Assembly: GCF_044324875.1 (NCBI RefSeq)
Contig: NZ_CP172187.1
Direction: 5' to 3' (one strand)
From: Escherichia coli
GTDB taxonomy: Bacteria; Pseudomonadota; Gammaproteobacteria; Enterobacterales; Enterobacteriaceae
DNA length: 64,000 nt
The translations under genes were made by a program, and so were the position numbers. Positions 8,343 to 59,970 of the stretch are shown here, piece by piece. Under the pieces are notes generated by a model. The model made no database searches. It worked only from the letters and a program-made list of their open reading frames with translations, and was not told where the DNA came from. Positions within the stretch are counted from its first letter, which is position 1. Each line of letters starts with the position of its first letter.

Positions 8343-8498
8343 GGCTTGTTATGACTGTTTTTTTGTACAGTCTATGCCTCGGGCATCCAAGCAGCAAGCG
8401 CGTTACGCCGTGGGTCGATGTTTGATGTTATGGAGCAGCAACGATGTTACGCAGCAGGGCAGTCGCCCTAAAACAAAGTTAACCTCTGAGGAAGAATT

Positions 8499-8972
8499 GT
8501 GAAACTATCACTAATGGTAGCTATATCGAAGAATGGAGTTATCGGGAATGGCCCTGATATTCCATGGAGTGCCAAAGGTGAACAGCTCCTGTTTAAAGCT
8601 ATTACCTATAACCAATGGCTGTTGGTTGGACGCAAGACTTTTGAATCAATGGGAGCATTACCCAACCGAAAGTATGCGGTCGTAACACGTTCAAGTTTTA
8701 CATCTGACAATGAGAACGTAGTGATCTTTCCATCAATTAAAGATGCTTTAACCAACCTAAAGAAAATAACGGATCATGTCATTGTTTCAGGTGGTGGGGA
8801 GATATACAAAAGCCTGATCGATCAAGTAGATACACTACATATATCTACAATAGACATCGAGCCGGAAGGTGATGTTTACTTTCCTGAAATCCCCAGCAAT
8901 TTTAGGCCAGTTTTTACCCAAGACTTCGCCTCTAACATAAATTATAGTTACCAAATCTGGCAAAAGGGTTAA
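8499..8972 (+). CDS. dfrA1: Trimethoprim-resistant dihydrofolate reductase cassette, DfrA1 type
   Basis: 157 aa matching DfrA1 as remembered ([42 protein letters not shown]...); first cassette after attI1. Confidence 0.85.
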
Positions 8973-15459: not shown

Positions 15460-17205
<1,746 letters not shown>

Positions 17206-23734: not shown

Positions 23735-23904
23735 TCAATATTATTGAAGCATTTATCAGGGTTATTGTCTCATGAGCGGATACATATTTGAATGTATTTA
23801 GAAAAATAAACAAATAGGGGTTCCGCGCACATTTCCCCGAAAAGTGCCACCTGACGTCTAAGAAACCATTATTATCATGACATTAACCTATAAAAATAGG
23901 CGTA

Positions 23905-24625
<721 letters not shown>

Positions 24626-44788: not shown

Positions 44789-45027
44789 GGGTGATGTTCT
44801 TTAAAAATCAGGATTTATTTCAGGCTCCGGCAATACGCATTTATGTGTTCTGTCAGTCATCCGGCTGGCAGGTAATGAGAACGCAGGAACAGAAGGAGGA
44901 AAACACCGGAGAACGTCAGACGCAGATATGAAAAAAGCAGGCCGGGGAGGACCTGCTTAATCCACACCGCAAAAACTGTTCGAGCAGTTTCTGCGGTTCC
45001 ATTCAACAGTCATAAGGAGTTTCATTT

Positions 45028-45258
45028 ATGACGGTAAGTATTGTTTCACCTTCCGCAGCGGCTGTAAAGCCCCGCCGTCATCCCCGTTTCAGACGCGAAG
45101 ACATCCCCGCGCCGGAAATTGACCCCGTGCTGAAAGCCTTCGGGCGACACATAGCCCGGAGTTTTCACCGGGGGCGTGGTGTACACATCCCCGCCATGAA
45201 AAACACGGCCTTCGGGCAGGTGCTCCGCACACTCGAACTGAAACGCGCTTTTAACTGA
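45028..45258 (+). CDS. Hypothetical small protein
   Basis: 76 aa with strong AAGGAG RBS. Confidence 0.4.
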   Translation: MTVSIVSPSAAAVKPRRHPRFRREDIPAPEIDPVLKAFGRHIARSFHRGRGVHIPAMKNTAFGQVLRTLELKRAFN

Positions 45259-47460: not shown

Positions 47461-47526
47461 CTGCTACTGCTACTGCTACTGCTACTGCTACTGCTACTGC
47501 TACTGCTACTGCTACTGCTACTGCTC
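47461..47526. repeat. Hexanucleotide tandem repeat (CTGCTA)x11
   Basis: Perfect 66-bp array; absent from the corresponding position in the other two family B copies. Confidence 0.85.
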
Positions 47527-47543: not shown

Positions 47544-48147
47544 CTGATTCTGACTACTGCAGTGTTGTTCTGTCTGCCGGGCGCACCTTCGGCTCCCGGC
47601 TGCCTGGCGGCATCCGGTCGTCAGGCCCGACTCCGACAGGCAGCTGCTGGCGCACCTGCCAGTCTCCGCCGAACCCGCTGGCGCGGTTTCGGGCTGCCGC
47701 TACGGTCCGATGCGTGAAAACCCGGCTTGCAGCGACCGTTCCGGTCGCGCCGCCCCTGTCGCGCCGTGACCTGCGCTCCAGGCATCCCGGCAAAAAGACG
47801 CCGGGATGTAAGGCGCAACGCCGTTTCGCAAACCGCGCTTCACGTCGTTGCGGCGGGTCCCTGCCCGTTGTTGTGTCCGGTGCCATTCACCTGTTTAAGC
47901 CCCTGTCGCCGGGGGCTGATACAGCCACAACCTGCCGCACTGACTGTCCAGGGTAAATGAACAGCCCACAAAATTTTTTACCCAAAACCCGGTAAAAAAT
48001 TTTGCGTTCTGCCCAGGACAGGTGCGTCAGGCCGTGGCAGTGATGCCCCATGCGGCGAAGGTTCTCAAACAGGTGATGGTGAATACCGGAGGGAACAAAG
48101 AGCAGGTCCCCGCAAAACGTCAAAACCGCGGCTCCCGAAACTCAACA
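47544..48147 (+). repeat. Leading-region GC-rich repeat, family B copy 2, immediately upstream of ssb
   Basis: Near-identical to 44184-44788 and 55606-56210. Confidence 0.7.
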
Positions 48148-48187
48148 GATGATGGGGGCTGAAAACATCAACAGAAGGAGACACATC

Positions 48188-51100
48188 ATGGCAGTTCGTG
48201 GCATTAACAAGGTCATTCTTGTCGGTGTGCGCCGTTGAAGCGCGGTGTTTTATGGAGTGTTGCCTGAAAAGCAACATGGCTTAGTGGTATAGCCATTGCA
48301 TACTGTGGTTAGCCTTGCTTGGTAACAGGCTCGGAGATCCTGAAAAGGAGAGGTGAACATAGCATCCACAGAAAAGGGTGGTGAATATGGAAATCGTTAT
48401 AAGTATCACCATTCAATGCAAGATGTATATGGATAAACTGGGTTTGTTGAAGTCGAGATCTATGTGGGAAACAGGAAACCAATAACGCAGAACGATTGAA
48501 GCGTTATTCCCGTACTAGCACAAGAAATCCGTCCGACGTTGATTGTGACCACTCTAACGGGCCAGCTATTGATGAAATAGTTAAACGATCGAAAGACATC
48601 CTAAGTACATCGCATCTCCACACCGTGAAACTACGGGACTACCTAAACTGGATTTATACCCAGCATGGTAGCGGAGTCTCCATAGTACTCAAGGTCGGCC
48701 TGTAATGGGTTCCGGCAGTCCGCATTATACGGAAGCAGCAAAGGTATAAATCAACCGGAAGGAAGATGAAAGCCTCACAGTGCTGCGGGGAAGGGAGACA
48801 GTTGTTAGATACATCAATCTCTAAGAGGAGGGTTAGCCAATGCTGCCTGATGAACTTGAGAAAAGATTAGATGGAATTGAGGATGCTTCAAAAAAAGGGT
48901 ATCCAGTACGTAATCTATACAAAATTGCGTGTGAGCCCGGACTGTGGCTGCAAGCCTACGTGAATATACGGGCCAATGCAGGTGCACTGACTCAAGGTGT
49001 ATCAACAGATACCATTGATGGCTTTTCTATCGAAAGAGCAGAGAAGCTGGCAAAAACATTGCGGAGTAGAGAATACGTAGCGAAACCTGTACGCAGAGTT
49101 CAGATCCCAAAAAAGGACGGAAAAACCAGACCGCTGGGGATTCCAGGTGGAGACGATAAACTGGCGCAAGAAGTAGCAAGAATTATTCTGGAAAGGGTTT
49201 ATGAACCAGTATTCTCTGAACACTCTCATGGATTCAGACCAAAACGTTCGTGTGAAACTGCGCTCAGATCTATTCGTCCAGTCTGGAACGGAGTTAAATG
49301 GATCGTGGATGTTGATATCAAAGGTTTCTTTGACAATATCCCCCACAAACTATTGCTGAATACACTGGCAGAGAAAATTAAGGATAAGAATTTCCTGAAA
49401 TTAATCGAACAGTGGCTGAAGGCAGGATATGTGGACAATTGGAAATACCATCGCTCATATTCTGGCACGCCACAAGGTGGGATAATTTCTCCCTTACTGG
49501 CAAATATATACCTCGACAAACTGGACCGTTTTGTAGAACAGAATTTAATTCCTGCATATACAAGCGGTACAAAACGAAGAGCGAATCCAGATATGAACAG
49601 GCTGGCCCATAAGATTCATAAACTACGAAAGAAAGTAGACGGTATGGCAACTGATTCTGAATCAGAAAAAGAAGCCATAAAGAAAGAAATTGAACGACTG
49701 CTTGAAGAAAAACGTTCTATACCATCTCAGGTCATGAACGATCCAAACTTCAGGCGTATGTACTATGTTCGATATGCTGATGACTTCGTAATCGGTGTCA
49801 TCGGCTCGAAGAAAGATGCTGAACATATATCAAGACAGGTCAGAAACTTTATTACTACTTCACTGGGATTGGAAGTTAATGAAGCAAAGACCAGGATCCG
49901 CCATATCTCAGAAGGAGTTAATTTTTTAGGCTATGAAATCAGACAGGCAGATGCAAAGAAATTGCTGAAGCAGAAAATGCAAGGGCGGCACGCTCTCCGG
50001 AGATCCACCACAGGAATTGTGCAGCTCTTCGTTCCTGACAATATAGCCGCTAAATTTTGTCACCAAAAGAAATATGGCTGTTATGAGAATGTGAAGGCTG
50101 TACATCGTTCAAGTCTACAAAATCTCAGTGAAGCTGAAATTGTTCTGACTTTCAACGCGGAAATGCGCGGATTGGCGAACTACTACAGTCTGGCGCTGGA
50201 CATGAAATATAAATTATCAAAATTATATTTCATATGGCAAATAAGCCTTTTTAAGACCCTGGCGAATAAACGACGTAGTTCAGTGAATAAAGTCGCCAAA
50301 TCGCTACGGCAAAATAATGGAGATCTGGCTATTACCGTTCAGGCCAAAAATGGATCCCGAAAGATTGAGGTTTTCAAACTCAAACATGTCAATCGCAACC
50401 GAACAACGATTGTCGATACGGAACCGAGAACCGCACATATCACAACCCGCACAACAGAGATCATGCGTCGATTAGGGGCAAGGATCTGCGAGTATTGTGC
50501 GAAGACTGGGCGCTGCGAAGTACATCATGTCAGAAAGCTAAAAGACCTGAAGAAAGGTCGTAAGGCCGGATATAAACCCAGCTTGTGGCAACTAATGATG
50601 ATCGCACGCCGCCGGAAAACGATGATTTTGTGCGCAAGTTGCCACGACAAGTTACATAGCGGAAAACTACCCGATTTGAGACAGGAAAAGGGAAGAATAC
50701 TCCTGCAACCACCTGTCTCAAGCGGGGATTCTGCTAAATGAGTTTATCCCCAATAAGCTAGCAATGGAGAGCCGTATGCACTGAAAGGTGCACGTACGGT
50801 TCGGAGGGGGGGTAACGGTGATCTAACTCAAGATAAGCAGGACATATTCGCCATTTATCTTGAAAGACCACACGTACCCTACCCTACCGTCTGGGAAAAG
50901 ATCCGGAAGTCCGTTACATCCCAAACGGGGGCGCAGTGGCAAACCTGCAGGTGGCCACGTCAGAAAGCTGGCGCGACAAACAGACGGGGGAGATACGGGA
51001 GCAGACAGAATGGCATCGCGTGGTGCTGTTCGGCAAGCTCGCGGAAGTGGCTGGTGAGTATCTGCGCAAGGGCGCGCAGGTCTACATCGAAGGTCAGCTT

Positions 51101-51376
51101 CGCACCCGTAGCTGGGAGGATAACGGTATCACCCGTTACGTCACCGAAATTCTTGTTAAGACCACGGGCACCATGCAGATGCTGGGACGTGCCGCAGGTA
51201 CTCAGACTCAGCCGGAAGAGGCGCAACAGTTCAGCGGTCAGCCTCAGCCGGAATCACAGCCGGAACCGAAAAAAGGAGGCGCGAAAACGAAAGGCCGTGG
51301 ACGTAAGGCCGCGCAGCCGGAGCCTCAGCAGCCGTCTGAACCCGCGTATGACTTCGATGACGACATTCCGTTCTAA
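48188..51376 (+). CDS. ssb: Plasmid single-stranded DNA-binding protein Ssb, interrupted by a group II intron (exon 1 48188-48226, exon 2 50888-51376)
   Basis: Exon 1 [13 protein letters not shown]; exon 2 [35 protein letters not shown]...DDDIPF; joined frame gives a 175 aa SSB. Confidence 0.8.
48227..50887 (+). mobile_element. Group II intron (about 2.66 kb) inserted in ssb
   Basis: Starts GTGCG; domain V-like GAGCCGTATGCACTGAAAGGTGCACGTACGGTTC at ~50768; encodes RT/maturase/HNH protein in domain IV. Confidence 0.8.
48840..50741 (+). CDS. Group II intron-encoded protein: reverse transcriptase, maturase and HNH endonuclease domains
   Basis: 633 aa; RT motifs incl. [13 protein letters not shown]-terminal HNH/Zn motif [17 protein letters not shown]...CASCHDKLH. 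Confidence 0.85.
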   Translation: MLPDELEKRLDGIEDASKKGYPVRNLYKIACEPGLWLQAYVNIRANAGALTQGVSTDTIDGFSIERAEKLAKTLRSREYVAKPVRRVQIPKKDGKTRPLGIPGGDDKLAQEVARIILERVYEPVFSEHSHGFRPKRSCETALRSIRPVWNGVKWIVDVDIKGFFDNIPHKLLLNTLAEKIKDKNFLKLIEQWLKAGYVDNWKYHRSYSGTPQGGIISPLLANIYLDKLDRFVEQNLIPAYTSGTKRRANPDMNRLAHKIHKLRKKVDGMATDSESEKEAIKKEIERLLEEKRSIPSQVMNDPNFRRMYYVRYADDFVIGVIGSKKDAEHISRQVRNFITTSLGLEVNEAKTRIRHISEGVNFLGYEIRQADAKKLLKQKMQGRHALRRSTTGIVQLFVPDNIAAKFCHQKKYGCYENVKAVHRSSLQNLSEAEIVLTFNAEMRGLANYYSLALDMKYKLSKLYFIWQISLFKTLANKRRSSVNKVAKSLRQNNGDLAITVQAKNGSRKIEVFKLKHVNRNRTTIVDTEPRTAHITTRTTEIMRRLGARICEYCAKTGRCEVHHVRKLKDLKKGRKAGYKPSLWQLMMIARRRKTMILCASCHDKLHSGKLPDLRQEKGRILLQPPVSSGDSAK

Positions 51377-54891: not shown

Positions 54892-55112
54892 TGCGGCAAC
54901 AATCACACGGATTTCCCGTGAACGGTCTGAATGAGCGGATTATTTTCAGGGAAAGTGAGTGTGGTCAGCGTGCAGGTATATGGGCTATGATGTGCCCGGC
55001 GCTTGAGGCTTTCTGCCTCATGACGTGAAGGTGGTTTGTTGCCGTGTTGTGTGGCAGAAAGAAGATAGCCCCGTAGTAAGTTAATTTTCATTAACCACCA
55101 CGAGGCATCCCT

Positions 55113-55325
55113 ATGTCTAGTCCACATCAGGATAGCCTCTTACCGCGCTTTGCGCAAGGAGAAGAAGGCCATGAAACTACCACGAAGTTCCCTTGTCTGG
55201 TGTGTGTTGATCGTGTGTCTCACACTGTTGATATTCACTTATCTGACACGAAAATCGCTGTGCGAGATTCGTTACAGAGACGGACACAGGGAGGTGGCGG
55301 CTTTCATGGCTTACGAATCCGGTAA
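55113..55325 (+). CDS. mok: Mok/FlmC-like overlapping reading frame of the hok/sok-type locus
   Basis: 70 aa ORF overlapping hok in another frame. Confidence 0.5.
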
Positions 55326-59090: not shown

Positions 59091-59283
59091 AAAAGAATTA
59101 AAAGTTGATTTGCTTCAAATAACAGGATTTTGATCTGGTTCAATTTGATGACAATTAACCGCATAAAGGTTATATTAATTACGTGGTTAATGCCACGTTA
59201 AAAATTGAAACTGAAAATCGCCGATGCAGGGAGTTCAGACCTCCCTGCATCGACTGTCCATAGAATCCTTAACGGAGGTTCCT

Positions 59284-59970
59284 ATGTGTGCGCTGGATCG
59301 TAGAGAAAGGCCACTTAACAGTCAATCTGTAAATAAATACATCCTTAACGTTCAGAATATCTACAGAAATTCTCCCGTTCCGGTTTGTGTCCGTAACAAA
59401 AACCGGAAAATCCTTTATGCCAATGGGGCTTTTATTGAACTCTTTTCCAGAGAAGATAAACCCTTATCCGGAGAGAGTTATATACGTCTGCAGGTTGAAA
59501 TTTTTCTTTCATCACTTGAACTGGAATGCCAGGCTCTTGGACATGGCTCTGCATTTTGTCGTCGTTTTAATTTTCATGGCGAAATCTATCAGATAAGGAT
59601 GGAGAATGTTTCTTTTTATAATGACGAATCTGTTGTTTTATGGCAAATTAATCCGTTTCCTGATTATCCATTTTTTGCGTTAAATCAGAGTGGAAGTAAT
59701 ACAAATACTTCTGATAAATTAACGATATGGAATGATCTTTCTCCAGGGACATTGGTTGTTTTCTCTTTTTATATGCTGGGTGTTGGTCACGCAACAATTG
59801 CCAGAGAGTTGGGTATTACAGACAGAGCATCTGAGGATCGAATTAAACCAGTTAAACGGAAAATAAAAGAATTTTTTGAACACTTTGATTTATTCAGAGT
59901 GTCATGTATCTATAAAGGAGAAATAGATTCGCTATTAAGTATAATTCGTGAATTTTATAGTATTAAGTAA
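59284..59970 (+). CDS. traJ: Transfer operon activator TraJ (track ORF starts at 59224)
   Basis: Position between traM and traY; AT-rich codon usage typical of traJ. Confidence 0.7.

Follow-up and report, generated by a model that had tools for sequence, protein, structure and literature searches.

The question raised by this locus is what interrupts a plasmid gene for single-stranded DNA-binding protein, ssb, and how such a gene could still be expressed. The stretch analysed here (the window) comprises 64,000 nucleotides of the Escherichia coli contig NZ_CP172187.1 (assembly GCF_044324875.1). Its ssb reading frame ends at 48226 after 13 codons and resumes 2661 bp further on, at 50888; both points had been noted in a sequence-only reading of the window and can be read directly from the letters. 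We propose that the intervening DNA is a complete copy of the group II intron E.c.I11, inserted after codon 13 of an ssb gene located in the leading region of a plasmid, and that this intron very probably splices and retrohomes in the manner of Ll.LtrB.

Rfam matches to sok (54997–55173) and to the traJ 5′ UTR and FinP (59181–59290), all above threshold, lie downstream of ssb. On the basis of these matches the window is assigned to an F-like plasmid with ssb in the leading region, transcribed towards oriT, in agreement with what the sequence-only reading had supposed.

Reconstruction of the Interrupted Gene

Exon 1 of ssb (48188–48226, plus strand) consists of the 13 codons from the ATG at 48188 and carries intron-binding site 1 (IBS1, GTCGGT) and a probable IBS2 (TTCTT); its sequence is the same in pEK499, pSA186_3 and the window. 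Exon 2 (50888–51376, plus strand) supplies 162 codons and a stop codon, and the encoded protein ends in DDDIPF. When the two exons are joined in silico, their translation is an SSB of 175 aa, residues 1–175 of which fall on positions 1–175 of the 175 in the NCBIfam profile NF010292 (plasmid-type SSB, PRK13732) with a score of 366.1 bits, the cut-off being 265 bits.

The exon junction was compared with the uninterrupted ssb of related plasmids using a 120-nt probe made by joining 60 nt from either flank of the intron. The probe is found at 100% identity and without interruption in intron-less plasmids, e.g., NZ_AP018811.1, and the uninterrupted site is present in 2998 E. coli records, which belong to 2662 of the 5426 complete genomes. 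In the full intron copies that we examined, the exons are all in frame and undamaged. The end-to-end profile match and the identical junction in intron-less plasmids bear out the earlier expectation that the exon join would rebuild an intact ssb, and removal of the intron is predicted to restore the full-length plasmid SSB.

Structure of the Intron and Its Protein

The intron occupies 48227–50887 (2661 nt) and, like all the intron features described below, lies on the plus strand. It begins with GUGCG at 48227, the GTGCG opening that had been pointed out before, and closes with ...CCCTAC at 50887, so that its GUGCG...AC ends fit the 5′ GUGYG / 3′ AY rule. The boundary bases are the same in the introns of all relatives, which also keep the 3′ end ...ACGTRCCYYACCCWAC. 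A covariance-model check of the intron ends, suggested in the sequence-only reading, was made with the Rfam model RF00029 (group II domains V–VI; gathering score 40 bits), which matches 50767–50887 with 67.4 bits (E = 4e-11) over model positions 1–77 of 77 and stops precisely on the predicted 3′ splice site. According to the RF00029 alignment and a ViennaRNA fold, domain V is a 34-nt hairpin with an AGC triad and a GAAA tetraloop at 50769–50802; the domain V-like hairpin placed earlier at 50768–50801 does exist, its position being one base off. Domain VI, assigned in the same way, covers 50805–50885; the A that bulges out of it at 50881, at a distance of 7 nt from the 3′ splice site, is predicted to be the branch point.

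Since Rfam has no model for domains I–III, we aligned the 5′ 620 nt of 11 related introns and mapped the RNAalifold consensus onto the window. The consensus comprises 145 pairs in 30 helices and forms a large branched domain I, with closing helices and internal branches, at 48232–48636 (alignment columns 6–452), followed by domain II at 48639–48671 (columns 455–501) and domain III at 48676–48799 (columns 506–637). Changes on both sides of the pair were found for 109 of the 145 pairs, and helices 1–22 of domain I are 82–100% paired, most of them with compensatory changes. The proportion of paired cells is 93.5%, against 38–42% when the partners are slid by 1–3 columns and 75.9% in shuffles, and none of 500 shuffles equals the observed value; it should be noted that the consensus structure was predicted from the same alignment that was used to test it, which inflates the paired percentage, and that, even so, compensatory pairs far outnumber those in either control. 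A group II structure can be modelled for this DNA, as had been anticipated, by covariation for domains I–III and by Rfam for domains V–VI.

Domain IV contains an open reading frame (ORF) for the intron-encoded protein of 633 aa (48840–50741), with the Shine–Dalgarno sequence GGAGG 8 nt 5′ of it. The assignment is based on Pfam, NCBIfam and homology to LtrA. Pfam identifies a reverse transcriptase (RT) region at approximately 49104–49940 (RVT_1, 1.7e-26) with the YADD motif at 49773–49784 (residues 312–315), a maturase/X region at approximately 50049–50309 (Intron_maturas2, 7.5e-10) and an HNH endonuclease at approximately 50487–50645 (AI2M-like_HNH, 3.8e-15), which agrees with the earlier description of a protein with RT motifs, a maturase region and a C-terminal HNH module. 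The NCBIfam profile TIGR04416 (group II intron reverse transcriptase/maturase) is matched with 310.7 bits at a cut-off of 300, and across 13 aligned relatives neither the catalytic YADD nor the HNH/zinc residues vary. Taken together, the exon join, the RF00029 match and the protein domains cannot be a product of chance.

The probable class of the intron is taken mainly from its protein. The best match among solved structures is LtrA (PDB 5g2x, chain C), with E = 5.5e-119 and residues 25–604 aligned with 25–593, whereas structures from other lineages match at 1e-48 or weaker and in the RT region only; the maturase region fits Pfam PF01348 and not PF08388. Because the homology to LtrA is full-length and the matches of the other lineages are confined to the RT region, the intron is placed by sequence in the mitochondrial-like lineage with a IIA-like structural type (Ll.LtrB-like), along the lines of the protein comparison proposed earlier for assigning the class. 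At the sequence level, this copy is intact in its ribozyme domains as well as in its exon-binding loop and its protein.

Pairing with the Target Site

IBS1 is formed by the last 6 nt of ssb exon 1 (48221–48226), and the probable IBS2 lies immediately before it (48216–48220). The loop of the stem 48519–48547 reads CG UCCGAC (48530–48537) and provides a delta G at 48531 and the predicted exon-binding site 1 (EBS1), UCCGAC, at 48532–48537. EBS1 pairs with exon positions −6 to −2 (GUCGG), the delta G pairs with exon +1 (C), and the next C upstream pairs with +2 (G). Among the relatives, exon −6 covaries with EBS1, being G opposite C or A opposite U, and the base preceding EBS1 on its 5′ side follows exon +1, G accompanying C and U accompanying A, in 12 of the 13 intron/exon combinations. 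As judged from the alignment, this tracking of +1 is the delta–delta′ arrangement of IIA introns instead of a separate EBS3. In the outgroup locus L096, where the target gene is unrelated, EBS1 pairs 6/6 with its own exon.

The tentative EBS2, AGGAA (48473–48477), is located in the variable loop 48468–48478 and would pair with exon −11 to −7 (UUCUU). The homologous loop forms 5–6 bp with exon −12 to −7 in the loci L096, L094, L012, L095 and L004 and only 3–4 bp in L005, L007, L008, L010 and L097. The loop AGAACGAUUGAA (48489–48500) was also considered as EBS2 and rejected: it would form 6 of 7 pairs, but it is near-invariant among relatives with differing exons and shows no compensation.

We observed that this 12-nt loop AGAACGAUUGAA, which belongs to the hairpin 48481–48508 of domain I, is nearly invariant even where the exons differ; it may be another tertiary-contact motif.

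Distribution and Recent Movement

In a PLSDB search with all 3189 nt of the ssb-plus-intron segment as the query, at least 418 plasmids match over the whole query at 99.4–100% identity, pEC958 among them. pEC958 (NZ_HG941719.1) matches at one place, with 99.4% identity over 3189 nt and with ltrA at the same ssb position in its leading region. This plasmid is described as having a single group II intron, named E.c.I11, located outside both resistance regions (PMC4398462), and the same paper is silent on the intron splitting ssb. Because pEC958 carries the window's intron as its only group II intron, the latter is identified by sequence as E.c.I11, an element that is already catalogued, widespread and routinely annotated as ltrA. 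pEK499 is another carrier.

A second PLSDB search, with the intron and 40-nt flanks and with a strict threshold, gave 514 matching records, 422 of which hold at least 80% of the query; among the rows listed, the match enters ssb on both sides, or a truncated copy stands beside ssb, in every one. The intron is present in 436 of the 5426 complete E. coli genomes (8%), at 555 places on plasmids and 8 on chromosomes. At the protein level, 494 plasmid records have at least 99% identity, a handful 80–99%, and the rest less than 60%. In the phage collection there is no close relative, all matches being below 45% identity. A second variant, found in pEK499, pEC958 and a 48-kb plasmid, differs from the window's intron by 18 substitutions.

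An insertion in the essential chromosomal ssb, which would be proof that the intron splices, was looked for: the chromosomal copy that we inspected (1 of the 8) is instead situated in an accessory ssb by plasmid remnants (TrbC, IS elements); another listed chromosomal match has F-type ssb flanks. At a distance of 2 kb from the chromosomal intron copy, an IS3-family element contains a different group II intron protein gene (WP_001189123.1; L099, 11369–12877).

The movement of the intron can be followed in two plasmids of one strain. The copy in pSA186_3 is 100% identical to that of the window, and the copy in pSA186_5 is 99.96% identical, with one indel. Exon 2 of ssb in pSA186_5 is only 87.5% identical to the window's, and the upstream flank belongs to a largely different I-type leading region in which only about 200 nt match. 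That the intron is 99.96–100% identical where ssb exon 2 has fallen to 87.5% identity and the upstream DNA is for the most part unrelated indicates, at the level of sequence comparison, that the intron moved recently, by homing. The comparative signature of homing is present: one element occupies the same target site in diverged DNA, and empty sites exist in the 2998 records mentioned above. As pSA186_3 and pSA186_5 are co-resident, their near-identical introns suggest that the element passes from plasmid to plasmid inside cells.

In the NCBI annotation, the intron gene is named ltrA and the ssb exons are never joined; the exon 1 piece is sometimes an "incomplete" pseudogene, and in pEK499 and pEC958 a 161-aa "ssb" coding sequence (CDS) starts from the CTG at 50891, 3 nt into exon 2. 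In hundreds of public plasmid records, ssb is entered as a truncated gene or as pseudogene pieces beside "ltrA"; once the intron is recognised, a normal ssb is recovered and leading-region genes are not miscounted. Whether a plasmid carries the intron, and in which of the two variants, can serve as a marker for F-like and I-like plasmids, among them pEK499 and pEC958 of ST131.

Relatives at the Same Codon Boundary

The relatives obtained by a protein search are 84% (Xenorhabdus budapestensis), 75–66% (metagenomes) and 55–48% identical to the intron protein. The target sites were inspected in the encoding contigs of 11 relatives with intron proteins 50–84% identical, and nine of these are inserted exactly at the homologous position of ssb, between the Gly codon that closes ..NKVxL[IV]G and the following [NRH]LGxDPE... 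The nine were found in Xenorhabdus, in several contigs from metagenomes and in genome bins that bear the labels Ktedonobacteraceae (Chloroflexota) and Rubrobacter (Actinomycetota). The neighbouring genes of the relatives are typical of mobile elements (topoisomerase III, DUF3577, AcaB, SLT, RadC, DUF3150, transposases). Relatives with enough flank keep the start codon and, where the contig reaches, the full-length SSB frame, some with a C-terminal IPF tail; L097 is an exception, its 3′ exon not being SSB-like past the junction. In a rough neighbour-joining tree without support values, the nine ssb-inserted relatives form one clade, which L094 adjoins. Their EBS1 and delta bases follow the local codon usage. 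The less expected point is this lineage-wide insertion at one ssb codon in very distant bacteria.

The two exceptions among the 11 are L094, in a gene of the Rad52/Rad22 family, and L096, in an unnamed ORF. At L094 (1201–3769), where the intron protein is 53% identical, the host gene family also has a single-strand DNA-binding function, and the delta base is unpaired with exon +1.

Among GTDB representatives, with one genome per species, only distant relatives were found (at most 47% identity). Of 80 distant LtrA-type loci, ssb is the interrupted gene in only two, L052 (Aneurinibacillus terranovensis) and L080 (a Halanaerobiales bin), whose introns are inserted elsewhere in the gene, after ..CAQY and ..LQIRS. 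As these positions differ from that of E.c.I11, group II introns have colonised ssb at three or more sites.

The Hairpin Upstream of ssb

Approximately 95 nt upstream of the ssb start and outside the intron, the minus strand contains a long imperfect hairpin of 215 nt with nested inverted repeats (47870–48095). Folded as DNA, the minus strand, which is the strand expected to be transferred and the template for ssb, gives −69.5 kcal/mol with z = −9.51, and none of 200 shuffles is as stable. Single-strand promoters of the Frpo/ssi type (ssi3/Frpo2) drive an ssb-led operon early after transfer (PMC10104558). The hairpin is a candidate promoter of this type that would drive both ssb and the intron, and early post-transfer expression of the two would fit the data.

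The NCBI annotation places a "frameshifted single-stranded DNA-binding protein" on the hairpin region (approximately 47957–48162 of the window; L002, 2771–2976; pEC958, 15748–15953). A second annotated copy of this region is found further along the leading region of pEC958 (23805–24010). These "frameshifted" SSB labels are probably an annotation artefact on repeated promoter-like elements.

Proposed Mechanism and Alternative Explanations

By analogy with Ll.LtrB and similar introns, we suggest the following course of events. E.c.I11 would be transcribed within the ssb mRNA, and its protein would bind the intron RNA and aid splicing, giving ligated ssb mRNA and a particle of intron lariat and protein; expression of ssb would then depend on splicing, as the sequence-only reading had also held. 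The particle would find an intron-less ssb through EBS1/delta pairing, probably with EBS2 pairing, and through contacts of the protein, and would reverse-splice into the sense strand, after which the HNH domain would cut the opposite strand and the reverse transcriptase would copy the intron in (retrohoming). Since ssb is located directly behind the Frpo/ssi-type hairpin, plasmid entry is probably followed by a burst of intron and intron-protein synthesis, and the particles of this burst could invade the ssb of plasmids already resident in the new cell.

Several observations weigh against this mechanism. We infer that E.c.I11 is spliced from ssb, and the support for this is comparative sequence; the link to early transcription from a single-strand promoter is also inferred, from the fold prediction and the literature. 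In the F-type ssb allele of the window, the exon −1 U faces a U of EBS1 (a U·U mismatch), and in the I-type allele with the same intron the exon ends in GUCGGG, so that −1 forms a G·U pair; the F-type site is, by this comparison, a slightly poorer EBS1 match than the I-type site. The EBS2–IBS2 pairing is short (4–5 bp) and ambiguous in register, and the assignment of AGGAA is tentative. Approximately 90 plasmid records have a truncated intron, or a copy beside a deleted ssb, which shows that plasmids tolerate the loss of ssb and that its function need not be maintained. Decayed copies include a 634-nt remnant of the intron 3′ end, joined to ssb exon 2 in many large plasmids (e.g., NC_007675.1), and 48-kb plasmids in which ssb exon 2 is deleted approximately 39 nt past the intron and is followed by a truncated ParB gene (L003, 6690–6730).

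The same observations would be explained if the intron were mobile and spliced poorly or not at all from the F-type ssb, the insertion being a tolerated knock-down or knock-out of a dispensable gene. The mismatch at −1, where the I-type allele has G·U, and the weak EBS2 pairing speak for such poor splicing, as do the truncated introns and the exon 2 deletions in plasmids that survive without an intact ssb; F-like plasmids are not known to need their ssb for transfer under laboratory conditions. However, no full copy examined has exons that are damaged or out of frame, the relatives with enough flank, L097 excepted, keep the start codon and the SSB frame, and five of the six IBS1 pairs and two delta pairs remain at the F-type site, and we consider this explanation improbable. 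It is very unlikely that the intron is an immobile relic, inherited vertically in one plasmid lineage beside an ssb pseudogene. That NCBI calls the piece with exon 1 an incomplete pseudogene and leaves the exons unjoined would suit a relic, but the 99.96–100% identity of the intron where ssb exon 2 has diverged to 87.5% and the upstream DNA is largely unrelated already contradicts it, and the ribozyme domains are all intact, as is the 633-aa ORF, with its 494 plasmid records of at least 99% protein identity. Least credible is the translation of a truncated SSB from within exon 2 without splicing, for which the annotation of the CDS 3 nt into exon 2 in pEK499 and pEC958 is the only argument: the annotated CTG start at 50891 stands just past the intron 3′ end without a Shine–Dalgarno sequence, and the product would be without residues 1–14, the first strand of the OB fold, which every SSB profile covers. 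The spliced and retrohoming E.c.I11 is the explanation that we prefer.

A wider reading extends this proposal to the whole lineage: E.c.I11 would be the enterobacterial tip of an old LtrA-type clade specialised on one ssb codon boundary in mobile elements, its particle being made in the entry burst in F-like plasmids and invading the ssb of resident plasmids, and this arrangement would not have been described before. We regard it as a tentative possibility with less than an even chance of being correct as a whole. In the searchable literature, with subscription papers and the intron database outside its scope, we found no description of ssb as a homing site of group II introns, and the searchable literature likewise yielded no reports of splicing or retrohoming and no biochemical data for E.c.I11.

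Comparison with Described Introns

The closest known system is Ll.LtrB with its protein LtrA from Lactococcus lactis (PDB 5g2x). The E.c.I11 protein is homologous to LtrA over the full length with the same order of RT, X, DNA-binding and HNH parts, and the introns share the GUGCG 5′ end, the 34-nt domain V and the delta–delta′ interaction next to EBS1 (IIA). Ll.LtrB sits in the relaxase gene ltrB of a conjugative element and spreads by conjugation. The two differ in that the E.c.I11 protein is clearly diverged in sequence, the host phylum is another, and the target of E.c.I11, ssb, is probably dispensable, unlike the relaxase, which is needed for transfer. If ssb targeting and early expression hold true, E.c.I11 would stand beside the Ll.LtrB/relaxase system as its natural equivalent in Gram-negative bacteria and could be used, in an experimentally easy host, to study how retroelements exploit conjugation.

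Two introns described in plasmids of similar kind were examined as possible copies of E.c.I11 and ruled out. The FII-33 (F33:A-:B-) plasmids of the pHN7A8 type resemble the window's plasmid in having a group II intron in an F-like resistance plasmid backbone; that intron is 2343 bp long, is found within a hypothetical ORF of 77 aa located downstream of ycjA and has been used as a lineage marker (PMC8765060, PMC6052338), so that both its length and its site, which is not ssb, differ. The putative group II intron ESBL01_04913 of the IncI-gamma plasmid p1ESBL, which gave new junctions during experimental evolution (PMC10104558), is likewise located in the leading region close to ssb. According to the supplementary tables, it is on the opposite strand, upstream of ssi3, and disrupts yffB, ssb being intact with 175 aa. 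For the protein of that intron, the model was built on 6me0, a member of another lineage (PMC10104558).

Other Features of the Window

Rfam matches above threshold were also obtained for an aminoglycoside leader/attI site at 8432–8503, which suggests a class 1 integron, and for the antisense RNA AS-pc01 at 44932–45033. At 47461–47525, the window contains a perfect tandem repeat of the 6-bp unit CTGCTA in 10.8 copies, which appears to correspond to the variable GCTACT repeat described in yddA of F33 plasmids (PMC6052338).

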